Source: an uncultured Verrucomicrobiae bacterium
GTDB taxonomy: Bacteria > Verrucomicrobiota > Verrucomicrobiia > Limisphaerales > JAFGQR01
Reading direction: 5' to 3'
Assembly: GCA_963788655.1 (NCBI GenBank)
Contig: CAWBHS010000057.1
Span: 192,189 to 256,188 of the forward strand
Length of the DNA stretch: 64,000 nucleotides
Shown here: one piece after another, positions 4,224 through 36,529 of the stretch
Numbering within the stretch: position 1 is the first letter of the stretch
How the letters are laid out: every line of letters begins with the position of its first letter
The notes under the pieces: model-generated
Seen by the model: only the letters and a program-made list of their open reading frames with translations
The model's database searches: none
What the model was told of the DNA's origin: nothing
Translations under genes and position numbers: made by a program

Positions 4224-4400
4224 CGAAAAGTCAGTCGCAGATTGCGAACAGATTTCAGCGAAGATCATGGAAACAGTTTAGGCGGCCTGGAGGAAAAGGA
4301 AAAGCTTTTGCCCCCATGGTGCGCGCATTATCCGTGGATGCCGCTATTTAACAGCAACAAACCCTCATGGTAGCGGCTCTTCTTCAAGTGGAGCGTGATC

Positions 4401-16874: not shown

Positions 16875-17260
16875 ACTTCTGCCGCCAGCGCGTCTGGCGA
16901 ATCAGTGTTCGAAGGTCTAACTGCGGTGGTGAACAGCAAACAGGGTGCCGCGAGAAAGCAAAGCCGTGGTGGAGTCGCTAAAGTGGATTCAAATCCGCCA
17001 TGCCAAGGTATTGAATTCTGAGAATCCTGGAACGTGAAACCCCAGATTGAGAACCTATCCTGCCAGGAAGGTATCGAAGTATCGCATCAGCGGGAGCTTT
17101 ACGGTATTCGACTCTTGGGCTTCTTTTGGAAATCGAACTTGAGACTTCGGGCTTTATGGCGCCAAGTCGCCCTCCTCGGCAAATCCCTGAAGCTCAACAA
17201 ACTCCGATTAACAGCCAACGCCCGGCAAGGCGGACAGCCGCGTCTCATTCCGAGCCAGGT

Positions 17261-17285
17261 TCGGGCCTGGAATGTCCAGGCCCGA
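17261..17285 (-). terminator. GC-rich hairpin about 20 nt downstream of the giant gene A stop codon
   Basis: TCGGGCCTGG AATGT CCAGGCCCGA: perfect 10-bp stem with a 5-nt loop. No U-tract follows, so it is not a canonical intrinsic terminator. Confidence 0.35.
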
Positions 17286-17304
17286 GCCATTGGCCGGTCA
17301 TTGA

Positions 17305-20300
17305 TTAATGTTCCACCACCCGATAGAACCGATGGGGTTGGCCATCGAGCATTTGCTCGAGACTGGCCGTGGTGCCGTTCAGGGTGACCTCGCCGGGCAA
17401 CACCTTCCACTGGGCTTCCATGAGATTGTCTTTATACTCGACTTGGTAATTCTTGCCGGGAACCGCTTCCCAGGACAAGACCACCCGATCCGTACTGGCG
17501 GTAATGTTCAAGGCGATAGGAGCCGGGGTAAACTCCACTTGATCCACCCAGCCTCGATCCTGGCCGATGGCGCTGCCGTAATCCTTGACATAAACCCACC
17601 ACAGTACGTGACTGCCAGCCGGGATGGCGAACGCCTGTTGCTCCCAGTCCACGTCTCCAGAAATGTTAGTCTGCTCGACGCCGCCAGCGTAGAACCGCAG
17701 GAAGTCACGGTTGGTTTCGGAAGATACCTTCCACCAGAAAGTCAGCGTGCCCGGTCCCACTACCGTGGTTTCCAGCCAGGTTTGCTGATTGTCTTCGATC
17801 ATGCCGCTGCGCGTCGCGTCTTCTCCATCGTGGGTCAGGTTGGTCTGCGCAAGCCAAACAGCGTTGCCGCCCGTGGTCCAGACCAGGTTCGTGGCGTCCA
17901 GGGCCTCCGCCAATGACAACACTGCATTCGTCACCGTCAATTGCGCCGCGCCACTGGTGACGTTCCCGGCCGTATTGCTCACCCGCACCGAATAGGCACC
18001 GGTTTGATCAACCTGCACTGTATCCAACGTCAATTGCGCGGTGGTAGCGCCGCTCACGGTGGCGCCGTTCGCCAAGTCCGCCCCGCCGAACTGCCATTGG
18101 TAGCTGAAGGGCGCGGTGCCGCTCACCGCCACCGAGAAGCTGACTGTCGCCCCGACGCGCACGTTCCGGCTCTGAGGCTGGCTCGTGATGGCCGGTGGGA
18201 GGAGAACCGTCAAGACCGCGTCCTCACTGGTGACGCTGCTGGCGGCGTTGTTCACCACGACCGAATAGGCGCCCGCTTGACCGGCTTGCACATTGGCCAG
18301 CGTCAACTGCGCCGTCGTCGCGCCGCTCACGCCCGTGCCATCCGTCAGGTTGTTGCCGTTCAGACGCCACTGATAATTGAGCGGCGGGGTGCCACTGGCG
18401 GCCACCGAGAAGCTGGCCATCGTGCCTGCAGCCACGGTCTGGCCTTGCGGCTGGCTCGTAATCTCCGGCGGCAGGATAACGGACAAGAGCGCCTCATCAC
18501 TGGTGGTGTCTCCGGCGGCATTGCTCACCACCACGGTATAAGCGCCAGCCTGGGCGGCTTGCACGCCGGTCAGGGACAAGTGAGCCGTGGTGGCACCGCT
18601 CACGCCACTGCCGTTCACCAGGTCCGCGCCGTTGAACTGCCACTGGTAGGTGAACGGTTCGGTGCCCGTGGCTGCCACGTCGAACGTAACATTCCCGCCC
18701 AACGCCACGTTTTGGCTCGCCGGCGGGCTGGTGATTTCCGGAGTCATCGTCATGGTGACAATGGACAAACGGGCGCGCGAACTGACGATGCTGCCGGCCG
18801 CATTGCTCACCACGACCGAATAGTTGCCAGCTTGGGCCAACGGCACGTTGCCCAGACTCAAATAGGCCATGGTGGCGCCGCTGACGTTGCCGCCGTTCAC
18901 CAGATTGGTCCCGTTGAACCGCCATTGGTAAGCCAGCGGCGGCAAGCCCGTAGCGGACACGCTGAAGGAAATCGATTCGTTAGTGAGCACCGTCACACTG
19001 CGCGGCTGTTCCAGAATCGTTGGCAGGCGGTTCTGCGTAAAATTGACCGTGGCAAAGTCGTCGCCAGTGGCAACCGCTTGCGAACGGCCTGTCACCGCCA
19101 CATGCCCGTCGTTCGCGACTGCAATGGCGTTGGCCACGTCCGCCAACCCAGCAAAGTCGTAACTCATCGTCCAGGCTTGATTACCTTGGGTGGTGTATTT
19201 AACCACCAGATAATTTGTGTTGCCCGCGGTCTCCGTGGAACCTGCCACGAACGCGTTACCGGCCAAATCCAACGCCAACGAGGTGGCGTTGTCGTCACCG
19301 GCACCGCTATAGCCAATATCCCATTGTTTGTTGCCGGCGGCATCATACTTGATCGTGATCCAATCCCGGCCGTTGGCGGCGGTGGTGACAGTTCCCGCGA
19401 CGAGAACATTACCCGCCGCGTCAATGGCCAGCGCCCGTGCTTCGTCCTGATCATGGGCCGGACTGTCATAACGTTTCGCCCAAAGTTGGTGGCCGGCGGC
19501 ATCATACTTGACCGTGGCAAAGTCCGCCATGGTGCCAGTGCCCCAGGACGAGCCCGTGACGATCACGTTGCCCGTCGCATCCAGCGCGATGGCCGTGGCC
19601 ATGTCGGTTTGCACGGCGGGGCCCGAATACGTGGCCACCCACAGCACGTTGCCGGCGGAATCGTATTTCACGGTAGTAAAATCCATGCCGTTCGTCGTTC
19701 CAGTGGCGCCGCCCGTCACATACACATTGCCCATGGCATCGACGGCCAGTCCGGCAGCCTGGTCAAGATTTCCGGCCGGGCCATTGAAGCGCGCCGACCA
19801 TAGCTTGGCGCCGCTGGCATTGTATTTGACCGTGTTATAGTCATTGGCGGTGGTGCCGGTGACATAGACATTGCCGGCGCTGTCCACGACCACCTTGCAA
19901 GCGGAGTCATCACCCGCGAAGGAGAAACGCGCAACCCACAGTTGGTTGCCCTCGGATCCATACTTCACGGTGGCGTAATCGTAATTGCCGCCGAGCGATT
20001 GGCCGGTCACATACACGTTGCCAGCGTCATCCACCGTGATGGAATTGGCTGCATCGTAACCGTTACCCAGGCCGTTGTAACGCGCACTCCACAGTTTGGC
20101 GCCATCGGGCGCGTATTTGACTGTCAGATAATCGCTGCCGGACGATTCGCCCACGGAAACCCCGGTGACATACACGTTGCCGGCGTCATCCACCACCATC
20201 GCGTGCGCTTCATCGGCACCGTTGCCCGTCCCGTCGTAACGCGCGGCCCAATCGGTTTCCACATCCGCCACCAAGGTCAACGCCGCCGAAGCGCTGGTGA

Positions 20301-23300
20301 CCGTGCCATGCTGGTTGGTGACGACCACGGAATAGCTGCCGACTTGCGCGGCCTGCACATTGAGCAGGGTTAACCGGGGGGTCGCCGCACCGCTCACGCC
20401 GATGCCGTCGGTCAGGTTGGCGCCGTCGAGACGCCACTGGTAACTCAAGGGTTCGGTGCCGCCGGCGCCGACATCGAAACTCACCGTCGCGCCTGCCAAC
20501 ACAGTTTGGCTCACCGGTTGGGTGGTAATCGAGGGCGGCAGATTGACCGTCAAATGGGCGGCCGAACTCGCCACGCTGCCGGCCACATTGGTTACGATCA
20601 CCGTGTAATCACCCGCCCGGGCAGATTGAACGTTCGCCAGCGTCAGACTCGGCGTGGTCGCGCCGCTTACGCCCGTACCGTTCAGCAGGTTGGCCCCGTT
20701 GAACTGCCATTGGTAGCTCAACGGCGCGGTGCCGGTAGCGGTGACGGTAAAGGTCGCCGTTCCTCCGGCTACCACGGTGCGGCTCTGCGGCTGGCTGGAG
20801 ATCGCCGGCGGAATATTTACCGTCAACTGCGCGTTAACGCTGGTCACGCCGGCCGCCGCGTTGGTAACCATCACCGAGTAAGTGCCGGCTTGCGCGGCCT
20901 GCACGTTGGCCAAAGTCAGGTTGGGCGTGGTCGCGCCGCTCACGCCGCCACCGTTCGGCAGGATGGCACCGTTGTAGCGCCATTGGTAGCTCAACGGCGC
21001 GGAACCGCTGACGCCGACGCTGAAGGTGACGGTATCGCCCACCACCGCAGTTTGGTCGGTCGGTTGTCCGGTTATTACCGGCGAAAGGAACGCCCGCGCC
21101 TGGGTCACGGTGTACGGCTCACCCGCAATTACCAATACGCCCGTGCGTTCGGCCGGATCCGGATTTGCCGCCACGGTGTAGTTCACCGTGCCGTTACCGG
21201 TGCCGCTGGCCCCGGACGTAATGGTAAGCCAGGTATTCGTGCTGACGGCGGTCCAGTCACAACCGTCGATGGCAGTCACGCTGACTTGGGCGCTTTCCTG
21301 CCCTTCGCCATGGCTGCGGTTGGTGGGTGCAATTACGAAGGTGCAAGGCGCGCCGGACTGGGTTACCGGGAAGAGCTGGCCGGCGATATACAAGTTGCCA
21401 ATTCGCGCGAGGCCGGTGGGATTGGCAGCGACCGAGTAGGAAATGGTCCCGCTATTAGTGCCGTTGGCGCCAGCGGTGATCGTGATCCAACTGTTGGTAT
21501 TGCTCACGGTCCAACTGCACCCTTCGAGCGTCGTTAGACTAATCGCTCCGACTTCCGCGGTATGGCCATGGGAACCACTGGCAGGATTAAGGGTAAAGCT
21601 GCAATCCGCGCCGACCTGGGTCACCACGAAGGACCAGCCGCCCATTGACAGTTCCCCAACCCGAGTTAATGCGGTCGGATTAGCCGCCACGGCGTAACTC
21701 AGGGTGGTGCTGCCCGGGCCGTTGGTACTGGAGGTGATCGCGAGCCAATCGTTGGTGGTGTAAGCCGTCCAATTGCAGGTGCCACACGTAATAATGTCCA
21801 CCGAACCCGTCTCCGCCCCGGCCCCGTGGACCCGTTCCGTTGGGGCAATCGCAAACGCGCGCTGGCTCATTGTGAAGATTTGGTCGCCGATGATAAATAC
21901 GCCCGAGCGCTCGTTGACGCTAAGATTGGGCAACACGGTGTATTCAATCGGGCCGCTGCTCACTCCGTTGGTGCCGGCGGTGAAGATGATCCAATCGTTG
22001 GTGTTGATGATGGTCCACGGACAATCCGTGATGGTGGTCAGGGTTACATACGAACTGGCGCCGCCGTACCCGTGGGTGCGTTTGCTGGGCGACAAGTCGA
22101 ACGTGCAGGGAATCCCCTGCTGGCTCACCGTAAACGACAGTCCCGCCACCGCCACCACCCCGGTCCGCATCAGCGGGCTGGGATTGGCCGCGACGGAATA
22201 GTTCACCGTGCCCGGCACGGTGCCGCTCGCACCTGCTGTGATGGTGATCCAGGCATTCGTGCTGACGGCAGTCCATGGACAGCCCGGCACACCGGTGACA
22301 CTGATCTGACCGGTTGCGGCACTGGACGAATGGACGCGATTGCTTGGCGTCAGCCCATAGGTACAAGGTGCTCCGTCCTGGCTCACGGTATAGGCCTTGC
22401 CGGCAACCGTCATGACCCCGGAGCGCACCAAGTGGCTGGGATTGGCGCCCACGGTGTAGTTCACGGCGCCGTTGCCCGTGCCACTCGCACCCGAGGTGAT
22501 CGAGATCCAGGGGTTCGTGTTGACCACCGTCCACGGGCAGTTGGTGAGCGTGGTGACACCGACCTGCCCGGTGGACGAAAGGTAGCCGAAGGCTTGATTG
22601 GTCGCCGAAATCGCGAACGTGCAGGGCGAGCCAAACTGCTGCAGCAGGAACGTTTGACCGGCAATGTCCACGCCACCAATGCGATCGTTCGGTCTCTGAT
22701 TCTCTTGCACGGTGTAGTTGATGATGCCGTTGCCGGCGCCGTTGGTCAGACCGGTGAACACGATCCAGTCGTTCGTGTTGACCACGGTCCAACTGCACTC
22801 GCTCACCGTTAGCACGCTGATCTGGCCGGTCGTGGAGACGTAATCCACAATACGGTCCGTCGGCAGGAGGGTGTAGGTGCAGGGGCTGCCCAACTGGGTC
22901 ACCAAGTACGCGTTATCAGCAATGTTAAGGTAACCACTGCGCGCGTTAGGGCTATAGTTGTCGGTGGTCGTGTAGCGCAACGTCGCCGAGCCAAGCCCAC
23001 TGGCGCCGGCGGTGATCGTGATCCAACTGTTACTGTTGATGGTCACCCAACTACATTCGTTACTGGTGGCAACGCTCACCAAACCGGCTTCAATGCCGCT
23101 GCCGTGCAGACGGTTGGTGGGGGCAATGGCAAACGTGCAGGGCGCGCCATCCTGGGTCACCGGGAAGGCCTGGCCGGCGATGGTCAACGTGCCCGTGCGC
23201 GGGGCGGGAATCGGATTGGCCGCCACGGTGAAGGTCACGATGCCGTCCCCCGAACCGCTGGCCCCGGCGGACACCGCCAGCCAGGAGTTCGTGCTGACCG

Positions 23301-26300
23301 CCGTCCACGCACAACCCGGGATGGTGGTGACACTCACCTGGCCGGTAGCACCTTCATACCCGCTCGTGCCATTGGCCGGCTCCAGCGTGAAGGCGCAGGC
23401 GGCGCCCAATTGGTCGATGGTGAAGGTCTGGCCGGCAAGGGTCATCATGCCCGTGCGCGCGATGGCGGTGGGGTTGGCCTCGACGACGTATTCCACCGTC
23501 CCGCTGCCAATGCCGTTGGTGCCCGCGATAATTTCGATCCAGTCGTTGGTATTGTCCGTGGTCCAGGTGCATCCGGTAATGGTCGTCACGGTCACCTGTC
23601 CCGTTTCAACGAGATCGCTGTGGACCCGGTTGGCCGGGGTGAGCGCAAACGTACACGGCGCGCCGGTCTGACTAATGTCGAAGGTTTGCCCGGCAATCAC
23701 CACCGTGCCCGAGCGGCCATTGGCGTTCAAATTCTCGCCCACCGAATAATTCACGTTGCCGCTGCCGGTACCGTTGGCGCCGGAACTGATCGTGATCCAG
23801 GAATTAGTATTGACCACGGTCCAGTCGCACCCGTTGAGCGTCGTTACCGTCACCAATCCATTGGCGGCCTGGTAACCGTGTGAGGCGCTGGTCGCTGAAA
23901 GCGTGAAGTCACATGGGGCGCCGGATTGGCTGACGGCAAAGGCCTGGCCAGCAATCAGGAGGTTACCGGTGCGCGCGCTGCCGTTGGGATTGGCCGCGAC
24001 CCGGTAGCTGACGCTGCCATTATTCGTGCCGTTGAGGCTTGAGAGAATGGTGATCCAACTGTTGGAATTACTCACCGTCCAACTGCACCCGGTGATGGTC
24101 GTCACGTTGATCGAACCGGTTTCTTCAATATAACCATGGTTTCGGCTGTCTGGGGTCAGCATGAACGTGCAGGGAGCACCCGCCTGATTCACCGTGTATT
24201 GTTGGCCGGCAATGGTGAGTACCGCCGAGCGGGCGATGGCCGTCGGATTGGGCGCCACGGCGTACTGCACGTCGCCGCTGCTGACCCCGTTCGCGTTGGC
24301 GGTGATCGTAATCCAGGCGTTGGTATTCTCCACGAACCAGGTGCAATCATTGACCGCCGTCACGTGGACCGAACCGTTTTCCAGGCCGGAACCATGGGCT
24401 TGCTCGGTCGGTGAAATGGCATAGGTGCAAGGCGCACCCCACTGGATCAGCGGAACCGTCTTGTCCGCGATCAGCAGCACCCCGGCGCGCAAATTCGAGC
24501 TCGGATTGGCGGTCACCGAGTAGTTCACCGTCGCGTTGCCAAGGTAGTTGGTTCCCGTGGAAATCGTGATCCAGGCATTCGTACTCACGGCGGTCCAATC
24601 GCAACCACTGCTGGTCGTCACCGTAATCGTCCCGGATTCGGCGCCATACCCATGAATCAAACTGGTGGGGTTCACGGTATAGACGCACACAATGCCGGTT
24701 TGGCTGATCGTGAAGGGTTGCCCGGCAATCACCAGCACGCCGGTACGCACCCGCGGGCCTTCATTGGCGGTCACGCTGTATGCAACGGTGCCATTACCCG
24801 TGCCGCTGGCACCCGCGGTGATCGTGATCCAACTGTTGGTGTTCACCGTCGTCCAATCGCAATTGCCAACGGGCGTCACGCTGATCTGGCCGCTGTCCGC
24901 CGGGGCGGTGTGCGCCCGCTCAGTGGGTGCCAAGGTGGCGGTACAAGGAGTTGCCAACTGCGTCACGGCGTACGGCAGACCGGCAATGACGAACACGCCG
25001 GAGCGGTCAGTGAAGTTCGGATTGGCGTCCACGCTGTAGTTCACGTTGCCGGAACCAGTGCCGCTCGCGCCGGAGCTGATCGTAATCCAACTGTTGGTAT
25101 TGATGACGGTCCAATCACACCCCTCGATGGTTGTTACCAAAACCTCGCCGGCCTCCGCTCCATGACTGTGAACCCGCTGTTCCGGCGCAATCGCAAAGGT
25201 GCAGGGCGCGCCGTCTTGATTCACCGTGAACTGCTGGTCGGCGACGGTTAGCACGCCCGAGCGCGCGATGGCCGTAGGATTGGCGTCCACCGAATAGCTT
25301 ACGTTACCGTTGCCCGTGCCACTGCCGCCGGCGGTGATCGTGATCCAACTGTTCGGATTACTGACCGTCCAATCGCAGCCATTGAGCGTGGTCACGCTAA
25401 ACTGGCCGGCGCCGCCTTCGTAACCGTGAGGGCGATTGGCTGGCGCCAGCGCGAAGGTGCAGGGCGCGGCCGCTTGTTCTACGGTGAAGGTCTGATCGGC
25501 AATGGTCACCATCCCGGTGCGCGGCAGGCCATTGGGATTGGCGGCGACCGAATAGTTCACGGTGCCACTGCCATTGCCGCTGGCGCCGGCGGTGATGGTG
25601 ATCCAACTGTTCGGGTTGCTGACCGTCCAATCGCACCCGTCCAGTGTAGTCACGCCGATCACCCCTGTCTCGAGGCCGGCACCATGAGTTTGGCCGGTTG
25701 CGGAGAGGGCATAAGTGCAAGGAGCGCCCACTTGGGTGACCGTGAACGCTTGCTCGCCAATCACCAGGACGCCCGTCCGATCAATCGCCGTCGGATTAGC
25801 GGCGACGGTGTATTCCACGCTGCCACTATCCGTGCCGTTGGCGGCCGAAGTGATAGTGATCCAAGTATTGGTATTGACCACGCTCCAGTCGCAGCCGGGA
25901 ATCGTGGTAAGGGCCACGGTGCCGGTTTCTTCGCCGGAACCATGAACCTGGCTGGTGGGCGAAAGCACGTAGGCGCAAGCCGCGCCGGATTGGGTGACCG
26001 TGAACGTTTCTCCGGCAACCGTCAGCACGCCGGTTCGTTCCAACGCGGTCGGATTGGCGGCCACCGCATAGTTCACGCGTTCGCCACCGGAACCGTTGGG
26101 ATCGGACAACAGGGTGATCCAATCGTTGGAATTGTCCACGGTCCAGTTGCAACCACTGCCGCTGCGTTCCCAGAAATCCGGATAGTTCCAACCCATGACA
26201 GGCGGGGAGAACAAATCGATACCCACAGCGTCGCTGGCTTCCATGCCGCGAAATTGAATGGTCCAGGTGAGTGAATCCGGCACCGAGGCCACCAGCGGTA

Positions 26301-29300
26301 CGGCGGCATCCACTTGAAAGTCTTCAAAGATCAACGTGGCCCGCGTCGTGGCTGACACGCCGAACCAACCGCTGTCATACAACACGGTCTGCGGCGTCGG
26401 ATAGCCCGAGGCCGAATCCGAACCATCATTGGCGTAAAAGCGCACCCGGGCTTCGACGGTTCCGACGAAGTTCGCCTGGTTGCGATTCTCGCCCCAATAC
26501 TCCAATTCAAACTTGGTGATCTCGCGGGCTTGTCCATCCAGGATCACCTCGTCGCCCACTTCCAGCGTGCCCGGATTGAAGCGCACCAGAAGATCGTTCA
26601 CCGAATTGTCATACACCAGGCCATCAAATACGACGTTGGTTTCGGTGCCGTTCACCGTGCGTTGCGCGGCTTCCATGCGCGCGGCAAAGTCCACCGGTCC
26701 CAGTGAATTGGTCTTTAGCGCCCAACCGCCGTCGGGCACCACATCCACCGAACCATTTTCGGCGCCGGCGCCGTGAATCATTGCATCGGCGGACAAGGTG
26801 TAGTTACACACCAACCCAGCCTGATGAACGGTGAAGAGTTGACCGCCAATGACCAGTATTCCAGTGCGGGCGCTGCCGCTCAAGTTGGCTGCCACGTCGT
26901 AACTTACGGTGCCGCTATCAGTGCCAGCGGCGCCATCGGTAATCGTAATCCAATAGTTGGTATTGTTCACCGTCCAATCACACCCGCTGGCGGTGCTCAC
27001 GCTGATCGTACCGCTGTCCGTCGCCACGCCGTAATCCGCGCTGGTCGGCGTCAGCGTGAAGTCGCAAGGAACGCCCGCCTGCGTCACCGTGAAGTTTTGA
27101 TCCGCAATGACCAACACGCCGGTCCGCGGTTGGGCACTGGGATTGGCTGCCGCGGTGTAACTCACGCTGCCGCTGCCGGTGCCGCCGGCGCCGGCGTCAA
27201 TCGTAATCCAGTCGTTGGTGTTGACCACGGTCCACTCGCACTCAGCGAGGGTCGTGACCGCAATGGTGTCGCTGGCTGCGTCGGCGCTCAGGCTGGCGCT
27301 GGCAGGATCCAGCGTATAATTGCAGGTCGCCCCAGCTTGGCTCACTGTGAAAAATGTATCCGCAATACCCAGCACACCCGTCCGCGCGGCGGTCGTGGGA
27401 TTGGCGGTCACGGTGTAGGTCACCATTCCACTGTTCGTCCCCTCCAAATCCGAGGTGATCGCAATCCAGTCGTTGGTGTTGACCACGGTCCAACTGCACC
27501 CGGAAAGGGTGGTGAGCATGACCATGCCGGCTTCCGCGTCGGCACTGTGATCAGCGTAGGTTGGCAGGAGCGAATAGGTGCAGGGTGCGGCTCGCTGCGT
27601 GAGCGTCATGGTTTGGCCGTCGGCTTCCACCACGCCCGATCGCTCATAGCCGTTCGGATTGGCGGCCACCGTGTAGGTAATCGACGCGCTGCCCGAACCG
27701 GTCATGCCGGAAGTAATCGTGATCCAATCGTTGGTGTTGACCACGGTCCAATCGCAACCGGCGGTGGCGGTCATGGTCAGCGTCCCGCCCGCGGCGCCAT
27801 AGCCATGCGTGCGCGTCGAAGGAGACAGTTTATATGTGCAGGGCGTTCCCAATTGGCTGAGCGTGAACGGTTGGTCACCAATTACCACCACTCCTAACCG
27901 GGCTTCCAGGTTGGGATTGGCCGCCACGCTGTAGGAAATATCGGCATTGCCCAGGCCACTGGTCGCCGACTGGATCGAGATCCACGCATTGGTATTGACC
28001 ACCGTCCACGCGCATTCACTGCTGGTGGCCACGCTCACCAAATCGGTGGTGGCGCCGTAACCATGGGTCCGGTCAATCGGCGAGAGCGTATAGACGCAAC
28101 CCACGCCCGCTTGGGTCACCGTGAACGTTTCATCAGCGACATTAAACACACCGGTTCGCGCGCCGAAGTCCGGATTGGCCGTCAGCGTATAATCCACGGT
28201 GCCGTTGCCCGTGCCGGTCAAGGCCGAGGTGATCGTGATCCAGTCATTGGTGTTGATCACGGCCCAACTGCACTCGCTGGTTGTGGTAACGGCAACCGAT
28301 CCGTTTTCCACCCCGGCGCCATGGCTTTGCTCGGTCGGTGCCAACGCATACGTGCAGGCGATGCCAGTCTGGCTGACGGGGTACAGTTGGTCGCCAATAA
28401 GCAGCGTCCCCGCCCGGGCGCTGACGTTCGAATTGGCTTCGACCGTGTAGCTCACGCTGCCGTTGCCGTTGCCGCTCAATTCGGAAGTGATCGTGATCCA
28501 GCTATTGGTATTCACCACGGTCCAGGCGCAGTCGCTGCTCGTCGTTACCGCGATGGTGCCGTTTTCCGAACCAGTCCCGTGATTACCCGCCGCCGGATCA
28601 ATCGCATAAGCGCAGGGTGCGCCCGTTTGGGCGACCACGAACACCGTCAAGGGATCGCCTTCAATGGTCAGGTTGCCGGTGCGCGCGGTGCGGTCCAGGT
28701 TGGCCGCCACGTCAAAGTTCACCGTTCCTTCGCCGGTGCCGCTGGCGCCGGAGGTGATGGTGATCCAATCGTTGGTATTGATGATCCCCCACGTGCAAGT
28801 GGCGGTGGTCAGCACCGTCATCTGGGCGGTGGTGGCCTCCGCTCCGAGCACCAGGTTGGTCGGCGAGGTTTCATAGACGCAAAACGCACCGCGCTGGGTC
28901 AGGGTGAAGGGCTGGTCGCCGACCACCACGACGCCCGCTCGATCCAGGGCGCCCGTATTTTCGCTCAGGCTGTAATTCACGCTGCCGTCGCCCGTGCCGG
29001 TCGTCGCGGAAGTGATCGTAATCCAATCATTCGTCGTGACGACAGTCCAGGGACAGCCCAGGACCGCAGTAACGCTGATTTGCCCTTCGGTGGCCGCAAA
29101 ACCATGAACGCGGTCAGTCGGCGAAATAGAGTAACTGCACGGCCGGGCGCGCTGCGTCAGCGTGAGCGTTTCGCCTTCGATGACCACTGTGCCGATTCGC
29201 TCGCTCGAACTCGGGTTGCTAGCCACGTCGTAGTTGATCGTGCTGGTGCCGGTGCCGTTCGGACTCGAGGTGATGGTTATCCAATCGTTGGTGTTGATAA

Positions 29301-32300
29301 TGGTCCAACTGCATGCGCTGTCCGCCGTCAGGCTAAACGTATCGCTGGTTGCGCCGTATCCGTGCGTGCGGGTCGAGGGCGAAACCTTGTAAGTGCAAAC
29401 CTGCCCCAGTTGGCTCAAGGTAAAGGGTTGTCCGCCAATCAGCACCACGCCGGTCCGGAGCGAATACGCGGGATTGGCATCCACCGAATACCCGATATCC
29501 GCGTTGCCCGTACCGCTGAGCGGCGAGTTGATCGCGATCCAATCGTTGGTATTGACGATGGTCCAGGCGCACTCACTCGTCGTCGCCACGCTGACCAATC
29601 CCGTCGAGGCGCCATATCCGTGCGTGCGGTCGATCGGGGACAAATCGTAAGCGCAAGTCGCGCCAGCTTGATTGATCGTGAACAGCTCGCCGGAGATGGT
29701 TACGAAACCAGTGCGCGGGCTCAAACTCGGGTTGGCCCCCACCGAGTAGTTCACGGTGCCGTTGCCGGTGCCGCTGGCGCCCGCGTCGATGGTGATCCAC
29801 GCGTTGGTGTTTTCCACCGACCACGAACACTCGGCGTCAGTCGTTACCCCCACCTGACCGGCTTCAGCTCCTTCCCCATGATCCGCGCTGACCGGCGCCA
29901 GCGCGTAAGCGCAAGGGATGCCCGCTTGCATCACCGGGAATACTTCGTCGCCAATCGTGAGATTACCCGTCCGCGACAGGTGACTAGGGTTGGCGTCCAC
30001 AGTGTAAGCAACCGTTCCGTTATCGGTGTTGTCCAGGCTCGAGGTAATGGTGATCCAAGTGTTCGTGTTCACCACCGTCCAACTGCAACCGCTCGGCGTC
30101 GTCACGTCCACGGAACCGTTGTCAGCGTCCGCGCCATGACTGCCGGCCGCGGGCGTCAAGGTGTAGGCGCAGGGCGTAGCGTGTTGGGTCAGGGTCAGGG
30201 CGGCGTCGCCGATAACGAGCACGCCGACTCTCTCCACCGCGTCGGGATTAGCGGCGACGTCGTAGGTGATCTCGGCGTTGCCGGTGCCGCTGGCGGCGGA
30301 GGTGATGGTAATCCAGTCGTTGGTGTTGACGATGGTCCAGTCGCACTCGGTGCCGGCCGTCAAACTGATGGAATCGCTCGTCGCGCCGTAACCGTGCGTG
30401 CGATCCGGCGGCGAAAGCGTGTAGGTGCAGGGCGCGGCGGCTTGATTGATAGTAAAGGACTGGCCGGCAATGGATAAGACCGTCGAGCGAGGCGTCATAT
30501 CGGGATTGGTCGCCACGGTGTAATTCACACTGCCGTTCCCGGTTCCGCTGGCGCCGGAGTCAATCGTAACCCAGGCGCTGGGATTGACCACACTCCAGGC
30601 GCAGCCGGCGCCGGCAGTGACAGTCACCGCGCCCGTTTCCGTTCCAGCGCCATGGTCCGCGCTGGCCGGGGCGATCGCATAGGTGCAGTCGAGTCCCGCC
30701 TGATTCACTTGGAACGCCTGGCCGGCGACGGTAAGGAAGCCGCTGCGCGCCGTGTATTCGGGATTGGCCTCCACCGTGTAGTTCAACGCACCACTGCTCG
30801 TGTTGTCCAAGGCCGAAGTGATCGTAATCCAGGTGTTGGTGTTCACCACGCTCCAAGCACAACCCGTGAGCGTCGTCACGGTTGTGGTTCCCGAATCCGC
30901 GGTCGCCGGGTGATTGGCCACCGTGGGCGCGAACACATAGGTGCAAGTGGGGGCGCGTTGCGTGAGCGCCAGGGCCTGGCCGCCAATCAGCACCACGCCA
31001 CTCCGCTCGATGCCATTGGGATTGGCGGCGACATCGTACGTCACCGTTGTGCCGCCGGTGCCGTTCAGAGCCGAGGTAATCGTGATCCACCCGTTGGTGT
31101 TCACCACACTCCAGGCGCAGCCGGCGCTGGTGGTCAATCCCACGGTTCCGGAGGTCGCGGAGTAGCCATGCGTCCGGCTGGTGGTGGAGAGCTTGAACGT
31201 GCAAGGCGCCCCCAGTTGGCTCAAGCTGAAGGGCTGACCGCCAATCACCACCGTGCCGGCCCGGCCTTCCAGACTTGCGTTGGCGGTGACGCTGTACCGA
31301 GACGTCGGCGCTGCCGGTACCGCTCAGCGGCGAATTGATCGTGATCCAATCGTTGGTTTTGACCACCGTCCAATTGCATCCGCTGCTGGTCGCCACACTC
31401 ACCAAATCGGTGGTGGCCCCGTAGCCGTGGGTGCGGTCGAGTGGGGATAACGTGTACGCGCAGGCAAGGCCGGCCTGCGTCACGGTGAACGTTTCGCCGC
31501 CGATGGTCAGCGTTCCGCTCCGGCTGTTGAGATCCGAATTCGCGGCCACTTCATAACTCACGCTGCCACTACCGGTGCCGCTGGCAGCAGACGTCAGCGT
31601 GATCCACGCGGCGGAACTCTCCGCCGTCCAGTCGCACCCGCCGGCGGTCGTGACGGTCACAGTTCCTGGTCCTCCCGCCGCGTCGGGGTTGGCACTGATC
31701 GGCGTGAGCGCATACGTACACGTAGCCGCAGCTTGCGTCACGGTGAAGAGTTCTCCGGCAATCACCAGGTTGCCACTCCGGGGATTCAGTTCGGGATTGG
31801 CCGCGACGTCGTAATTCACCGAGCCGCTGCCGGAGCCGGTTGCCCCCGCGGTAATGGTGATCCAGGAATTCGTGTTGATCGTCTCCCAATCGCAACCATT
31901 GTCGGTGGTCACCGCCACGGTCCCCAGTCCGCCACCGGCGTTGAACGAGTCACTGTTCGCACCCAATGAATAAGCGCAACTCCCCTCAATGGTCACCGTG
32001 CCGTCCACGTACGTGGAACTCAATGGCGTGGCAAACTCGTCCGACACTTCGCGACCAATCGGCTGGTCTCCAAGAGTCACCGGGGTGGCGACCGTGCTCG
32101 TACCGGGAGCGGCGGCGAAGCACACGTCAACAACCACCTGGGAGCCTGCGGGAAAGGTGGAGCTGAAATAAAGCGCCACGGCGCATCCAACACGACCCGA
32201 CTCAGCCTGATTGGCGTTGAGCACCAAGGGGAACGCGCTGCTGGCGCCGCTGCCCAAACTCGCAGAGACGAAGGTCAGCAGGGCGGGATCGTAATTCAGA

Positions 32301-32485
32301 CTGAAGCCCAAGGCATTTTCATCGCCCTGGGCCTCCAGAAAAACTGACAGACACTGCGTCTGTCCACGGGAAACCGTCATGTCCCCAACCCGCAAACTTC
32401 GTTCAGCGCCGAAACTGGCTGACACAAGCGTCAGCATTAACAGCGAAACGACCGCCAAATACCTTGTGTTGACTGATTCTCTCAT
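17305..32485 (-). CDS. Giant secreted modular protein A (~5,059 aa): cohesin-like, 40 BACON-like repeats, 3 Ig, SBBP propeller, 4 Ig, FWWKVSSE module, RFYRVV C-terminal domain; one apparent +1 insertion at ~31302
   Basis: Track ORFs 30560..32485 and 17305..31251 are one gene. The first leaves frame inside a repeat (...SGTGSADVS|VQRHRQ) and the second resumes it (VIGGQPFSLSQLG). Removing one G (TCG g TAC) restores ADVSYSVTANASLEGRAGTVVIGGQPF. Signal peptide MRESVNTRYLAVVSLLMLTLVSASFGA. The 13.9 kb from 31251 to 17305 is a single unbroken frame. Confidence 0.9.
17308..17523 (-). other. Shared C-terminal domain, subtype 1 (protein A): ...VVLSWEAVPGKNYQVEYKDNL...RFYRVVEH
   Basis: The last 72 aa align by eye with the last 70 aa of protein D, and more loosely with the C-termini of B and C. 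Confidence 0.65.
17530..17929 (-). other. Unassigned ~130-aa FWWKVSSE...GWVDQV module (single copy in protein A)
   Basis: LSLAEALDATNLVWTTGGNAVWLAQTNLTHDGEDATRSGMIEDNQQTWLETTVVGPGTLTFWWKVSSETNRDFLRFYAGGVEQTNISGDVDWEQQAFAIPAGSHVLWWVYVKDYGSAIGQDRGWVDQVEF. The same module occurs 15 times in protein D. Confidence 0.7.
17935..19035 (-). repeat. Four Ig I-set-like domains (protein A)
   Basis: Same YQW.FNG / SGAT...L.L.NV...AG.Y.VVV.N consensus as at 20270-21090. Confidence 0.75.
19040..20265 (-). repeat. Eight SBBP-type beta-propeller repeats (protein A)
   Basis: Eight ~50-aa units of the type A..VDDAGNVYVTG.......DY.TVKY...G..LW.ARY, matching the PF06739-like pattern. Confidence 0.7.
20270..21090 (-). 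repeat. Three Ig I-set-like domains (protein A)
   Basis: P.IT.QP..Q.V..G..V.F.V...G..PLSYQW..NG..L.....VSGATTP.LTL.NVQ..Q.G.Y.V.V.N..G.V.S..A.LTV, three times. Confidence 0.75.
21095..31978 (-). repeat. Array of 40 tandem ~86-aa (258-nt) BACON-like repeats in protein A
   Basis: I counted the units one by one. Consensus: C.Y.L.P....HG.....G.V.VTT...C.W.VVNTN.WITITSG.SGTGNG.V.Y.V..NP....R.G.L.I.G..F.V.Q.G. Nearly every unit has two conserved Cys. Some units form 3-unit super-repeats (THGYG type / LDNT type / IDAG type). Confidence 0.75.
26165..26740 (-). other. ~190-aa unassigned domain nested inside one BACON-like repeat of protein A
   Basis: One unit is split: CNYTLSADAMIHGAGAENGSVDVVPDG [GWALKTNSLGPVDFAARMEAAQRTVNGTETNVVFDGLVYD...IDLFSPPVMGWNYPDFWERSGS] GCNWTVDNSNDWITLLSDPNGSGGERVNYAVAANP. 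Confidence 0.7.
31985..32404 (-). other. Cohesin-like domain (protein A, N-terminal)
   Basis: LRVGDMTVSRGQTQCLSVFLEAQGDENALGFSLNYDPALLTFVSASLGSG...VVVDVCFAAAPGTSTVATPVTLGDQPIGREVSDEFATPL. It shows the cohesin pattern (set of variants -> G.S..L.YDP..L.FVS...G) and is clearly paralogous to 36743-37168 and 57400-57828. Confidence 0.6.
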
Positions 32486-32675
32486 ATTTCGATCCCATTT
32501 ATTGCCAATCCTTTAAATAGTCGGCTGCCAGCCGGTTTTCTGAAATCCGTAAGACCCCTAAGCCGGCCATCGGGGAAATACCTAAAAGGCTCTCCGGGCA
32601 ATTGCGGTACGGCGCGGCTCGCCCCGCTTAACGCGGTAATCCGGGATTTGTTCCTCATTGGAGACTGCGTCCGGG

Positions 32676-35600
32676 CTATTGTTGCTTCACGGCCCGGTAA
32701 AATCGTTGCGCAAAATTGGTGGTGCCAAGGTCGATGAAATCGATGGTCCCCAGCGTATTGGTCAGGCGAGACAGCGTATCCCAATGCACCAGATTGGTTG
32801 AACCTTGCACTTCCCAAATCTCGCCGGGCACGCCGGACAGCGTCAGCTTCATTTGTCCGGTGGCGGCGGGCATGGTGATCGGCCCGAGGGTGACGCCCAC
32901 AGTGGAAAACTGCTGGGTGACCGTGAACAATTGATTGGCCACGACCAACTGGCCCGTACGCTCCTCAAGACCGGTATTGGCGCTCACTTCATAGCTCACG
33001 CTGCCGTCGCCGGAACCACTCTCGCCCGCGGAGATCGTGATCCAGTCATTGGGGTTTTCGACGGTCCAATTGCACCCGTCGCCGGCCGTCACCGTAATCA
33101 AGCCGCTTTCCGAGCCCGGACCATGAGTAGCCTCGGTCGGCGCAATTACCCAGGTGCAATCCGATCCCGACTGGGTCACGGTAAAGAGCGCAAACGGATC
33201 GCCGGGAATGGTCAACATACCGGTCCGTTCATTGCGCGTCGGATTGGGCGCCACGGTGTAGGTCACGGTGCCGAAGTTGGTGCCGTCCGGACTGGAAGTG
33301 AGGGTGATCCAACTGTTGGTGCTGACCACCGTCCAACTGCAACTGGTCAGCGAGGAGATGGCCACTTGGGCAGTTTCCTGGGCCGGGCCGTGGATGCGGT
33401 TGGTCGGCGAGAACTCGAAGAGGCAAAACGCGCCGCGTTGGTTCAAGGTGAAAACCTGATCGGCAACAAACACGAGCCCGGTCCGTTCGAGAGCGCTGAT
33501 ATTGGGCGGAATCGTATAACTGAATTCGCCGTTGCCGCTGCCGGTGGTGCTCGAACTGATCGTGATCCAGGCGTTCGTGTTGGATACCGTCCAATTGCAG
33601 CCGTCGTTGGCCGTCACGCTCACGGTGCCGCTGCTGGCGCCGCTGCCGTGCAACCGGTCCTCCGGGGATAATTTGTAACTACAGGTTTGGCCCTGTTGCC
33701 CCAGGTTGAAGGGTTGGCCGCCAATAACCACCACGCCGGAACGGTCATTGAACGTGTCATTGGCTGCCACGGAGTAACTGACCTCGCCGGGGCCGGTACC
33801 GGTCAGGCCCGAGGTGATCGTGATCCAACTGTTCGTATTCTCGACGAGCCATTCACATCCGTTCAGCGTGGTCACGCTCACCGTCCCGGCCGCAGCGCCG
33901 TAACCGTGCGTGCGACTGCCCGGGGTGATGGAATAGGTACACGGTGAACCAATTTGCGTCACGCGGAACGCTTCGCTGCCAATGGTCACCACGCCGGTGC
34001 GGTTACTCAGGCCCGCATTGGCGTCCACGGAGTATTGCACTTGCGTGCTGCCGGTGCCGGTGGGGCTGGAGCTGATCGTAATCCAATCGTTGGTGTTGAC
34101 CACGGTCCACGTGCAGCCGTCGAGCGTTGTCAGGTCCACCGTGTCCGCGGCGGCGCCGTAACCATGGGTGCGGTCAATGGGAGACAACTTATAGGTGCAG
34201 GGCCGTCCCACTTGACTCACGCTGAACACCTGATTGGCGATCACGATCACGCCTGCCCGGCCTTCGATGCCCGGATTATCTTGCACGGCATACTCCACGT
34301 CGCCACTGCCGGTCATGCTCGGGGCGGAGTTGATCGTGATCCAAGTGTTGGTGTTCACTACGTCCCACGTGCAACCGTCGAGCGTCACCACACTCACTTG
34401 GTCTGTAGCCGCGCCGTAACCGTGCGTGCGATTGATCGGCGTCAATGCATACGTGCAGGGCACGCCCGCCTGGATCAACGTAAAGGGTGTGCCGCCAACG
34501 GTCACTACACCGGTCCGGTCATTCAGGCCGGAATTATCCGCCACGTTGTAGTTCACCGTAGTACTGCCCTGCCCATTCGAGCTCGTCGTAATGGTGATCC
34601 AACTATTGGTGTTAACGATCGTCCAACTGCACCCGCTGAGGGTGGTGAGGCCGATCGTGCCAGCGCTGGCGCCGTAACCGTGGTTGCGACTGGTCGGTGA
34701 CAAGGCGTATTCACAGGGGGCGCCGGTTTGCGTCAGCACAACCGTTTCGCCGCCAATCACGAGCGTCCCGGTCCGGGCGTTGGGACCTTCGTTGGCGGCC
34801 ACCGTGTAGTTGATGGTAGCACTGCCGCTGCCTTCGGGATTGGAGGCAATGGTAATCCAAGTGTTGGTGTTCACCACACTCCAGACGCATCCATCGAGCG
34901 CAACCAAGTTCACACTGTCGGCCGCCGCGCCGTAACCGTGCGTGCGGGTCGTCGGCGTCAATGCATACGTGCAGGGCACGCCCGCCTGGATCAACGTAAA
35001 GGGTGTGCCGCCAATGGTCACCACGCCGGTCCGGTCATTCAGACCGGGATTGGCCACCACGGTGTAGTTCACCGTGGTACTGCCCTGACCGTTGGGACTC
35101 GTCGTGATGCTGATCCAGCTATTGGTGTTGACGATCGTCCAAGTGCATCCGCTGAGGGTGGTGAGGCCGATCATGCCGGCGCTGGCGCCGTAACCGTGGT
35201 TGCGACTGGTTGGCGACAAAGCGTATTCACACAGGGCGCCGGTTTGCGTCAGGACGAGCGTTTCACCCCCAATCACGAGCGTCCCGGTCCGGGCGTCGGG
35301 ACCTTCGTTGGCGGCCACCGTGTAGTTGATAATCGCGCTGCCGCTGCCCTCGGGGTTCGAGGTGATGGTAATCCAAGTGTTGGTGTTCACCACGCTCCAG
35401 GCGCAACCATCGAGCGTCGCCAAGCTCACACTGTCAACCGCCGCTCCGTAACCGTGCGTGCGGGTCGTCGGCGTCAATGCATAGGTGCAGGGCACGCCCG
35501 CCTGGGTCAATGTGAACGGCGCGCCGCCAATGGTCACCACGCCGATCCGGTCGTTCAAGCCGGGATTGGCCACCACGGTGTAGTTCACCGTGGTACTGCC

Positions 35601-36404
35601 CTGCCCGTTGGGACTCGTCGTGATGCTGATCCAGCTATTGGTGTTGACGATCGTCCAACTGCACCCGCTGAGGGTATTGAGGCCAATCGTACCAGCGCTG
35701 GCGCCGTAGCCGTGATTACGACTGGTCGGAGTCAAGGTATAGGTACACGGGGCGCCGGTTTGGATCAGGACGAATGTTTCACCGCCAATCACCACCGTCC
35801 CACTCCGGTCGTTGGGGCCTGGATTGGCGGCCACCGTGTAGTTGACTTCAGTGCTGCCGGTGCCTTCGAGGCTCGTCGTGATGGTAATCCAGGCATTGGT
35901 GTTCTCCACGGTCCAGGGGCAGCCGATGACGGAGGTCAAGCTGACGGCGCCGCCAGTCGCGCCATATCCATGGGTCCGCCCGGTCGGCGACAACTTGTAG
36001 GTGCAAGGGCGCCCGCGTTGCGTCACGTTGAACGGTTGGTCAGCAATGACGAGCACGCCCGTCCGCTCGGCGGAACTTGGATTGGCGTCCACACTGTAGA
36101 GGATGTCGCTGGTGCCGGCGCCACTGGCGCTGGACAGAATGTCGATCCAGGTGTTCGTGTTCACCACCGTCCAGGCACAGCCGCTGGTGGTCACCACGGA
36201 AACCCGATCGGTGGTGGCGCCGTAACCGTGCGTGCGCTCTATCGGGGAGAGCGCATACGTACAAGGCTCGCTCGCTTGGGCTGGGCTTTGACCGAGGACA
36301 GCCAAAGTTATCGCCAAGGGCATAAGGGCCCTCCACACCTTCTGGTTGAAGAAATTTCTCATACTTCTGCTCTCGTTTGCTTGTGGTTCGTTACACCATT
36401 TCAT
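32676..36404 (-). CDS. Secreted protein B (~1,230 aa): 13 BACON-like repeats + RFYRAV C-terminal domain
   Basis: Intact track ORF 32676..36404. The likelier start is ATG 36362 (MRNFFNQKVWRALMPLAITLAVLGQSPAQA = signal peptide). I counted 13 units, then ...LVHWDTLSRLTNTLGTIDFIDLGTTNFAQRFYRAVKQQ. Confidence 0.9.
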   Translation of the reverse strand: MKWCNEPQANESRSMRNFFNQKVWRALMPLAITLAVLGQSPAQASEPCTYALSPIERTHGYGATTDRVSVVTTSGCAWTVVNTNTWIDILSSASGAGTSDILYSVDANPSSAERTGVLVIADQPFNVTQRGRPCTYKLSPTGRTHGYGATGGAVSLTSVIGCPWTVENTNAWITITTSLEGTGSTEVNYTVAANPGPNDRSGTVVIGGETFVLIQTGAPCTYTLTPTSRNHGYGASAGTIGLNTLSGCSWTIVNTNSWISITTSPNGQGSTTVNYTVVANPGLNDRIGVVTIGGAPFTLTQAGVPCTYALTPTTRTHGYGAAVDSVSLATLDGCAWSVVNTNTWITITSNPEGSGSAIINYTVAANEGPDARTGTLVIGGETLVLTQTGALCEYALSPTSRNHGYGASAGMIGLTTLSGCTWTIVNTNSWISITTSPNGQGSTTVNYTVVANPGLNDRTGVVTIGGTPFTLIQAGVPCTYALTPTTRTHGYGAAADSVNLVALDGCVWSVVNTNTWITIASNPEGSGSATINYTVAANEGPNARTGTLVIGGETVVLTQTGAPCEYALSPTSRNHGYGASAGTIGLTTLSGCSWTIVNTNSWITITTSSNGQGSTTVNYNVADNSGLNDRTGVVTVGGTPFTLIQAGVPCTYALTPINRTHGYGAATDQVSVVTLDGCTWDVVNTNTWITINSAPSMTGSGDVEYAVQDNPGIEGRAGVIVIANQVFSVSQVGRPCTYKLSPIDRTHGYGAAADTVDLTTLDGCTWTVVNTNDWITISSSPTGTGSTQVQYSVDANAGLSNRTGVVTIGSEAFRVTQIGSPCTYSITPGSRTHGYGAAAGTVSVTTLNGCEWLVENTNSWITITSGLTGTGPGEVSYSVAANDTFNDRSGVVVIGGQPFNLGQQGQTCSYKLSPEDRLHGSGASSGTVSVTANDGCNWTVSNTNAWITISSSTTGSGNGEFSYTIPPNISALERTGLVFVADQVFTLNQRGAFCLFEFSPTNRIHGPAQETAQVAISSLTSCSWTVVSTNSWITLTSSPDGTNFGTVTYTVAPNPTRNERTGMLTIPGDPFALFTVTQSGSDCTWVIAPTEATHGPGSESGLITVTAGDGCNWTVENPNDWITISAGESGSGDGSVSYEVSANTGLEERTGQLVVANQLFTVTQQFSTVGVTLGPITMPAATGQMKLTLSGVPGEIWEVQGSTNLVHWDTLSRLTNTLGTIDFIDLGTTNFAQRFYRAVKQQ
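32679..32909 (-). other. Shared C-terminal domain, subtype 2 (protein B)
   Basis: ATGQMKLTLSGVPGEIWEVQGSTNLVHWDTLSRLTNTLGTIDFIDLGTTNFAQRFYRAVKQQ aligns with protein C PEGGVKLILFGEPGAVWELQSSADLEHWDPLTTVTNTTGTVEYIDADAINANPRFYRAVSQ. Confidence 0.7.
32910..36263 (-). repeat. Array of 13 BACON-like repeats (protein B), including a 516-bp higher-order repeat
   Basis: Unit length is exactly 86 aa. Units 3/5/7 and 4/6 are near-identical. The string GTCAATGCATA(C/G)GTGCAGGGCACGCCCGCCTGG recurs at 34441, 34957 and 35473, exactly 516 bp apart. Confidence 0.85.
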
Positions 36405-36529
36405 TCGTCACTGGATTCGGAAATTCGTAAATCCCCCCGGCGCGCCCTCCGCAGATTCGCGGCGCGCGGGGACGGGGATTTGCTGAAACTGGAACATGAT
36501 CGCGCATTGCCATGATTGGTTCGCACTGG

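Follow-up and report, generated by a model that had tools for sequence, protein, structure and literature searches.

A 40-unit array of two-cysteine BACON domains in a giant verrucomicrobial protein, a candidate extracellular spacer rod

When 40 copies of one small domain follow each other in a single gene, three questions arise: what the domain is, whether the copies truly stand in one polypeptide, and what so long an array might be for. Such a case is presented by gene A, encoded on the minus strand of a 64,000-nucleotide (nt) stretch of a verrucomicrobial assembly (GCA_963788655.1, contig CAWBHS010000057.1, 192,189-256,188); this whole stretch is referred to as the window, and all positions below are window positions. 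The copies in gene A, together with further ones in two other genes of the locus (B and D), are identified here as BACON domains bearing a pair of cysteines, and the array of A is proposed, with some reserve, to form the rod of a giant exported protein.

With regard to the first question, a hidden Markov model (HMM) was derived from the units themselves and used to scan the window in all six reading frames. Gene A yields 40 units (21097-31981, with the register extending to 31987), gene B 13 (32910-36269) and gene D five (57828-59099). The 58 units are all on the minus strand, their individual E-values range from 1e-25 to 1e-39, and the rest of the window is free of matches. These counts reproduce, with boundaries almost to the base, those of an earlier note on this DNA, whose consensus for a unit of about 86 residues likewise matches the one obtained from an alignment of 51 window units. 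The unit period is exactly 86 amino acids (aa), and C4, C32, W34, W42, N64, R70 and Q85 are invariant in the 51-unit alignment. Three units are interrupted: the third of A by a frameshift (31297/31298), the twenty-first of A by a 190-aa insertion and the second of D by a frameshift near 58752.

The earlier note had also assigned the units to BACON and BACON_2, and both Pfam profiles agree with this: gene A scores 514.6 bits with PF13004 (E = 2.5e-158; 28 stretches, against a cut-off of 25) and 436.5 bits with PF19190 (E = 7.4e-134), while the corresponding scores are 233.1 and 185.5 bits for B and 50.6 and 41.6 bits for D, all of them well in excess of the gathering cut-off. The predicted fold is in accord with the profiles. 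An AlphaFold2 model of unit 40, computed on the 51-unit alignment, has nine β-strands at a predicted local distance difference test (pLDDT) score of 96.1, and its best Foldseek match in the PDB is the N-terminal BACON of BoGH5A, a GH5 xyloglucanase of Bacteroides ovatus (3ZMR; TMq 0.82, root-mean-square deviation 1.7 Å). Further, the unit profile run against PDB sequences matches the BACON parts of 8VA4, 9S8X and 3ZMR. Judged by profile and by model, the units are true BACON domains.

The most distinctive feature of these units is their cysteine pair, which the earlier note had described as strictly conserved. The pair is invariant across the 51 aligned window units, most units contain exactly two cysteines, and 80 of the 84 cysteines of gene A lie within the BACON array. 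The 58 extracted units contain 117 cysteines, one of which is an out-of-frame artefact, and the 116 real ones agree with the figure estimated earlier. Among 2,820 units from 241 homologous proteins aligned to the unit HMM, 2,633 cover both positions; both cysteines are present in 2,613 of these, neither in 14 and just one in 6, two of which are alignment shifts of one or two residues (effectively four). The two residues are hence kept or lost together (Fisher's exact p = 4e-32). In the solved BACONs 8VA4, 9S8X and 3ZMR the position of Cys32 is occupied by a different residue, as is that of Cys4 where it is covered, so that the pair can be taken as the mark of a structurally uncharacterised subfamily. 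Two units of A are instructive in this regard: unit 21 retains both cysteines in spite of the 190-aa insertion between them, and unit 38 (21616-21864), with a 4-aa deletion, is the sole A unit without Cys1 but has an extra cysteine three residues before Cys2, the resulting C-G-T-C being what may be a local compensating pair.

The unit model puts Cys4 just ahead of strand 1 (residues 6-9) and Cys32 just ahead of strand 4 (residues 33-38). In Ig-like sandwiches, strand A begins at the same end of the domain at which the B-C loop finishes, a topology that makes proximity of Cys4 and Cys32 plausible. An extracytoplasmic location, which the earlier note had deduced from the cysteines, finds support in Sec-type signal peptides on A and B, judged by eye. 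The co-conservation, the behaviour of units 21 and 38 and the signal peptides together support a putative intradomain disulfide formed after export.

As to the second question, the claim that 40 units stand in one polypeptide stood up in its count and needs a qualification in its frame, in that the window as given must lose one extra G at 31297. In raw form, gene A appears in the ORF listing and translation as two overlapping open reading frames (ORFs) in different frames: 30560..32485 (641 aa), which begins with the signal peptide and holds the earliest repeat units, and 17305..31251 (4,648 aa). Comparison of the three frames across the junction shows that deletion of this G joins the two perfectly into 5,059 aa. 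At this point the window reads TCG-G-TAC, and paralogous units read ..TCC TAC.. or ..GGG TAT.. instead. In an independent soil metagenome (run X1), a unitig of 151 nt spans 31215-31366 and differs from the window solely in having one base fewer at 31297. Owing to this unitig and to the intact genes of syntenic relatives (see below), gene A is best read as a single ORF and is most likely one of 5,059 aa, the unitig support being not conclusive at a depth of about 2. Other unitigs of X1, and some of X3, are 99-100% identical to parts of A and B (18223-18487, 22171-22321, 26778-26928, 29134-29486, 31051-31201, 31444-31594 and 35482-35635); those matching A, of 151-265 nt, are scattered over six places and come from two independent soil metagenomes. 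The parts of gene A, read in this way, are as follows.

17305..32485, minus strand: gene A, conceptually one 5,059-aa ORF, split in the window by the extra G.
32405..32485, minus strand: Sec-type signal peptide (MRESVNTRYLAVVSLLMLTLVSASFGA, cleavage inferred before the E that follows), read from the translation; no lipobox.
31988..32404, minus strand: N-terminal divergent cohesin-like domain (family profile).
26818..31987, minus strand: BACON units 1-20, 86 aa each (unit HMM, Pfam).
25987..26817, minus strand: BACON unit 21, interrupted in the loop that leads up to Cys2 (unit HMM).
26158..26727, minus strand: nested all-β domain of 190 aa in unit 21 (homologues, model).
21097..25986, minus strand: BACON units 22-40 (unit HMM).
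17308..21090, minus strand: C-terminal modules, comprising three I-set Ig domains, an SBBP β-propeller region, four I-set Ig domains, an FWWKVSSE module and the C-terminal domain.

Apparent single-base frameshifts are also seen in other, otherwise conserved genes of the window, namely a dipeptidyl peptidase IV (DPP-IV) gene at 1919-4268, which is split into Peptidase_S9 and DPPIV_N ORFs, a PA14/LTD/CotH gene (36530-46497, three ORFs) and gene D (at about 58752 and at 54747-55260, with the region 51656-55260). Their number suggests that the assembly is indel-prone, possibly a long-read one; the read check of frameshifts covered position 31297.

The units of A have diverged considerably, with a mean identity of 46% and maxima of 73% at the aa level and 72% at the nt level. 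Tandem Repeats Finder (TRF), run on 17000-36500, detects no tandem repeat in the DNA, the periodicity being at the protein level only. This divergence and the negative TRF result make collapse or expansion of the A array in assembly unlikely. The array appears, from its sequence, to be old and selected, with the fold-defining residues kept in each unit despite the low mean identity. An all-versus-all comparison reveals recurring unit types in A, namely A03/A10/A16 (70-73% identical), A04/A07/A11/A17 (56-62%), A05/A08/A18 (53-58%) and A06/A09/A19 (51-60%), and among units 1-20 there are collinear blocks in which units 3-5 resemble 16-18, 8-11 resemble 14-17 and 4-6 resemble 7-9. In a permutation test, collinearity is significant for units 1-20 (top-three statistic p <= 0.003; best blocks 3-5 with 16-18 and 8-11 with 14-17) and not for units 22-40 (p > 0.15). 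The three-unit super-periodicity proposed earlier is thus upheld in part: a THGYG/LDNT/IDAG triple does recur at units 4-6, 7-9 and 17-19, as old block duplications, but it is confined to units 1-20 and absent from units 22-40, and a strict period-3 super-repeat was rejected on account of a flat lag profile (0.44-0.49). Gene B, for its part, carries a recent period-2 (516-nt) duplication across units 3-7 (34467-35756), with B03/05/07 at 84-88% and B04/06 at 90% identity, protein and DNA alike. Units A13 and B12 have in common an unusual 'GDP..(V/L)F.V' ending, which hints that the A and B arrays are partly paralogous.

The earlier note regarded BACON as a domain present in one to a few copies, mainly in Bacteroidota, and 40 copies as extreme. 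The Pfam BACON seed is indeed drawn from Bacteroidetes, and a crAssphage protein has eight copies (PMC6949934). When B served as the query of a word-indexed search, 593 of the 8,000 candidates scored reached E <= 1e-10; those with a name belong to Verrucomicrobiota, Deltaproteobacteria, Vicinamibacterales, Pyrinomonadaceae and Candidatus Acidoferrum, and the 120 matches listed carry 6-23 units with about two cysteines per unit. An exhaustive search of 1.84 billion representative proteins with the two-cysteine profile gave 27,581 matches at E <= 1e-3, 16,805 at <= 1e-10 and 5,088 at <= 1e-30. The longest array, in P0121 (5,503 aa), has 50 full units, and the next ones have 28, 28, 24, 23, 23, 22 and 21. 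In this ranking by bit score, whose profile derives from the two-cysteine subfamily such that very divergent long arrays could be missed, the 40 units of A are second, a high number and not a unique one. The term extreme is hence warranted by the rank of A and tempered by the protein with 50 units and by a syntenic relative of 5,966 aa with at least 36. Similarly, one to a few copies in Bacteroidota is a fair description of characterised BACONs, but not of sequence space, where Verrucomicrobiota, Acidobacteriota, Deltaproteobacteria and other groups commonly have arrays of 10-28 units. A GTDB scan with the 4,648-aa ORF, based mostly on patterns from its Ig domains, yielded 77 loci, nearly all in Verrucomicrobiota (Pedosphaera, Limisphaerales), of which one alone contained BACON units and none an orthologue of A. 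A literature search met with no description of the array of A or of large BACON arrays outside phages and Bacteroidota, which is no proof that none exists.

Beyond the array, three parts of gene A bear on its possible function. The first is the N-terminal domain: the profile of its family (A3, eight members) retrieves 1G1K and 2VN5 at E = 5e-5, with cohesins making up 10 of 10 PDB matches, and six of the eight members match Pfam Cohesin (best 1.2e-9). The second is the 190-aa insert of unit 21, for which Pfam and NCBIfam give no matches, and which is 47-55% identical to about 48 small, stand-alone, secreted verrucomicrobial proteins (215-311 aa), mostly metagenome entries. A W-x-L-x-T-N...D-F-A-A-R-M-E-A segment closes the domain in these homologues and opens it in A, and this transfer to the front makes the insert a circular permutation of the stand-alone domain. 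Its model (pLDDT 74.5) is all-β with weak, CBM16/CBM61-like Foldseek matches (TM 0.3-0.4), and at this level no fold assignment is claimed. The third is the C-terminal domain of about 74 aa, which ends in RFYRVVEH; comparable domains (about 60-74 aa, ending in RFYR[AV]V or RFYQVV) are common to A, B and the ORFs 36530-40663 and 46523-51325. Among the 48 stand-alone homologues of the insert, 26 end in PEP-CTERM and 16 in an RFYR-type domain, and this alternation suggests that the latter may be a sorting or anchoring module. That A and B themselves are PEP-CTERM/exosortase substrates was considered and rejected, their C-termini being β-type domains (RFYRVVEH and RFYRAVKQQ, respectively).

The FWWKVSSE module of A belongs to a type of about 130 aa ('FWWKVSSE...GQDRGWVDQV') that has no Pfam match and occurs in 14 copies in the window, one in A (17530-17925) and 13 between 46981 and 57215 on the minus strand. 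Of these copies, ORF 46523-51325 has six, and D with its continuation has several; the module usually alternates with I-set Ig domains.

The same-strand neighbours of A are all giant multidomain proteins of the exported type, including, further upstream, a 1,600-aa I-set Ig protein and D. The features concerned are listed below.

32676..36404, minus strand: gene B, with a signal peptide, 13 BACON units and a C-terminal RFYRAV domain (Pfam, unit HMM).
54747..63023 at least, minus strand: gene D, continued past a frameshift in the overlapping ORF 53011..55260.
57828..59099, minus strand: the five BACON units of D, one of them split by the frameshift near 58752.
17308-17529, 32679-32909, about 36533-36740 and about 46526-46730, minus strand: RFYR-type C-terminal domains.

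Gene D combines an N-terminal right-handed β-helix lyase of the Chondroitinase_B type (E = 6e-102), Ig-like repeats, a weak peptidase-like region, PKD, the five BACONs, a cohesin-like domain, FWWKVSSE modules and I-set Ig domains, and looks, from this composition, like a giant secreted polysaccharide lyase in which the BACON units lie between the enzymatic and the binding parts. The ORFs 44785-46497, 40425-44939 and 36530-40663, which contain PA14, Ig, six LTD, CotH, He_PIG and cohesin domains, are probably a single gene of about 3,450 aa broken by frameshifts. This PA14/LTD/CotH giant, B and A, in that order, make up a three-gene cluster (17305-46497, minus strand), and the order is repeated in at least five other contigs with B-like homologues (L078, L080, L081, L082 and L083), where the positions are occupied as follows.

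Position 1 in relatives: PA14/LTD/CotH/LTD protein of about 3,300 aa.
Position 2 in relatives: BACON-only protein of 859-1,215 aa with 9-13 units.
Position 3 in relatives: giant with a signal peptide, a cohesin-like domain and a BACON array of 21, 28 or 50 units.

In the syntenic giant of L082 (5,966 aa; ENA scaffold YQ_forest_Scaff0573890, ERZ1759139), the first 3,288 aa already contain 36 units, a lower bound for the gene as the array is still running at this point, and the members of the syntenic clusters all end in a domain of about 60-74 aa that finishes in RFYR[AVL]. By this comparison, A is one member of a conserved, uncharacterised gene cluster in which the unit number of the giant varies between genomes. 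A phage origin, as the 'viral BACON' label might imply, was rejected, the window being chromosomal with genes for a histidine kinase/response regulator, DPP-IV, a POT transporter, a thioredoxin-reductase-like protein and 2-oxoglutarate dehydrogenase. Convergent to the 3' end of gene A there is a 420-aa ORF (15179-16441, plus strand) with a weak match to Rce1-like/CPBP intramembrane proteases (E = 5e-6).

Turning to the third question, we consider it on the whole probable that the product of gene A is a giant, non-enzymatic protein that a soil verrucomicrobium (Pedosphaera/Limisphaerales-like) exports to the cell surface or beyond, with disulfide-stapled BACONs as a spacer rod. In this proposal, for which we infer the disulfide, the rod geometry, the anchored end and any ligand, the 40 BACONs follow one another without separate linkers, the last strand of each unit being some 4-5 residues away from Cys1 of its successor, and would make up a rod that is long, stiff and resistant to proteases and that might measure about 140-160 nm, given about 3.5-4 nm per Ig-like domain. 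After export by the Sec pathway, an intradomain disulfide would join Cys1, located in the linker that enters the unit, to Cys2, at which the B-C loop ends, pinning the linker to the body of the domain and stabilising each unit. The rod could act as a spacer or stalk, by analogy with what has been proposed for the single BACON of BoGH5A, and would separate the N-terminal cohesin tip and the CBM-like domain nested at mid-length from the C-terminal Ig, β-propeller and FWWKVSSE modules, with the C-terminal domain of about 70 aa as a candidate sorting or anchoring element. Via the conserved cluster, A might act together with B and the upstream PA14/LTD/CotH giant. A spacer role is favoured by the lack of a catalytic domain in the A array and by the BACON-only makeup of B, and structural work covered in PMC6949934 treats bacterial BACONs as linkers.

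Several observations weigh against this proposal. A scan of all frames of the window for dockerin EF-hand motifs found none, and the cohesin-like domain of A, taken alone, matches Pfam Cohesin (PF00963) at E = 0.018-0.03, with 14.9-15.7 bits against a cut-off of 24.1. Likewise, Pfam and NCBIfam searches with the C-terminal domains of A and B returned no match and no known sorting signal. The removal of the frameshift rests on one unitig at a depth of about 2, and strain polymorphism could explain the difference. Counting of cysteines is by itself also compatible with inter-unit pairing, Cys2(i)-Cys1(i+1). Finally, BACON was originally predicted to bind glycans, and a binding role of the units can be envisaged.

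This last point leads to an alternative in which the BACON units are themselves functional, as a multivalent lectin or adhesin that engages a polysaccharide (plant, fungal, exopolysaccharide or mucin-like) with high avidity. It would be in keeping with the naming of BACON as a predicted carbohydrate-binding domain, with the BACON-containing Chondroitinase_B-type lyase giant D in the same locus and the PA14 and CBM_4_9-like matches in neighbours, as well as with the weak CBM16/CBM61 likeness of the domain nested in unit 21. Additionally, the surface-type residues W34, W42, N40, N64 and R70 are conserved in 58 of 58 units. However, the invariant residues are the same as those across all BACONs and may be fold-determining, and Larsbrink et al. 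in 2014 reportedly did not find xyloglucan binding for the BACON of BoGH5A. The sole structurally studied cellular BACON is moreover described as a linker (PMC6949934). Taken together, these considerations leave the lectin alternative unlikely, if worth keeping in sight.

A more far-reaching proposal, which we regard as doubtful and offer as speculation, is that soil Verrucomicrobiota use the three-gene cluster to build an undescribed extracellular scaffold, with tunable disulfide-stapled rods (21 to 50 or more units), cohesin tips that would dock dockerin partners, and an RFYR anchoring or sorting domain functionally interchangeable with PEP-CTERM, the interchangeability being suggested by the alternation of the two on one family of small proteins.

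It is also conceivable, if rather improbable, that the cysteines do not pair within the domain and instead form bonds between neighbouring units or molecules, as in a fibre or sheet held together by cross-links, or else coordinate metal. Cys1 lies within the inter-unit linker, where pairing with the previous unit is sterically conceivable, and giant surface proteins can carry covalent cross-links. However, the joint loss of the two cysteines (neither in 14 units, a single one in at most six and effectively four) fits intra-unit pairing better than pairing between i and i+1; the terminal units of all arrays retain both cysteines; the single-unit AlphaFold2 model is confident over both positions (pLDDT >= 89 per 10-residue block); and Ig-fold topology is expected to place both positions, before strand A and after the B-C loop, at one end of the domain. 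That the large unit count is an assembly artefact, or that A is a decaying pseudogene with unreliable array length and frame, is most improbable, since the several apparent frameshifts of the window (DPP-IV, the PA14/LTD/CotH gene, D and A) stand against units at most 73% (protein) and 72% (DNA) identical in which TRF sees no repeat, metagenomic unitigs that match A at six places and correct its frameshift, an open frame with all fold-defining residues preserved in every unit, and giant ORFs that are intact, with 21-50 units, in syntenic relatives.

The spacer-rod proposal is of some consequence, given that BACON is among the most often annotated and least understood of 'binding' domains, for which the only structural work points to a passive spacer. 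The two-cysteine family offers natural test material, with B almost BACON-only and A providing 40 units with a cysteine pair that characterised BACONs lack. Were A indeed a disulfide-stapled rod, its family would parallel the giant Ig-repeat adhesins but be exported by Sec and independent of calcium, with an array length that appears variable among related genomes (21, 28, 40 or 50 units); it would also offer a clue to cell-surface organisation in the abundant, poorly cultured Verrucomicrobiota of soil. What is new here is a two-cysteine BACON array that putatively serves a giant verrucomicrobial protein as its rod, in the setting of a conserved three-gene cluster; the BACON family and its fold were established before, as was the concept of giant surface proteins made of repeats, and nothing in them is overturned.

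Comparison with known systems helps to place gene A. Its units are like the BACON of BoGH5A (3ZMR, PF13004) in fold, Pfam family and W/W/N/R core, and probably in a spacer role. However, the latter is a single N-terminal domain beside a lipidated cysteine in an enzyme of a Bacteroidota polysaccharide utilisation locus, whereas in A, a verrucomicrobial and non-enzymatic protein, 40 copies stand in tandem in the interior; and both cysteines of the pair are missing from the solved BACONs. The 'Bacteroidetes-associated, often N-terminal' context of BACON is thus replaced by a Verrucomicrobiota-like host, internal arrays of 5-40 copies and the absence of a lipobox. This departure from the lipoprotein setting is one of context and is no bar to membership of the BACON family. 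The tandem BACON protein of crAssphage (PF19190, BACON_2) has eight units in a conserved order, attributed to domain duplication followed by stability (de Jonge et al. 2019, PMC6949934). Both it and A are tandem arrays, and BACON_2 is strong in A, but the phage protein is encoded beside tail genes, in contrast to the 40 units of A, which are found among housekeeping and surface-protein genes with no phage context in the window.

At the level of the whole protein, A can be compared with giant adhesins and with scaffoldins. SiiE and LapA/RTX adhesins comprise thousands of residues, with tens of tandem Ig-like domains as a rod and ligand modules at one end; their BIg- or Cadherin-like repeats are rigidified by Ca2+, and they are exported by a type I secretion system with C-terminal RTX signals. 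Gene A would have a similar giant Ig-like rod, but differs in its Sec signal peptide, its cysteine-paired BACONs and its unrelated C-terminal domain, and the Pfam results for A contain no RTX/HemolysinCabind or type I secretion signal. Cellulosomal scaffoldins and non-cellulosomal cohesin proteins may be likened to A for its divergent cohesin-like domain at the N-terminus, with others in D and ORF 36530-40663; in contrast to scaffoldins, A has one such domain in place of a cohesin array, and its host belongs to the Gram-negative Verrucomicrobiota. Further counterparts are uncharacterised multi-BACON proteins of metagenomes, namely P0121 (50 units), P0122 (28), P0125 (21) and the 5,966-aa gene of L082, which have the same start of signal peptide, cohesin-like domain and two-cysteine BACONs, the RFYR end and the synteny; hydrophobic N-terminal signal peptides are also apparent by eye in P0121 and P0122. 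P0121, P0122 and P0125 contain both dockerin-like and cohesin modules. The C-terminal halves of the relatives, with cysteine-rich HYR-like repeats, a dockerin-like module and a cohesin, differ from that of A with its Ig domains, SBBP propeller and FWWKVSSE module, and the domain nested in unit 21, not seen in these four relatives, sets A apart.

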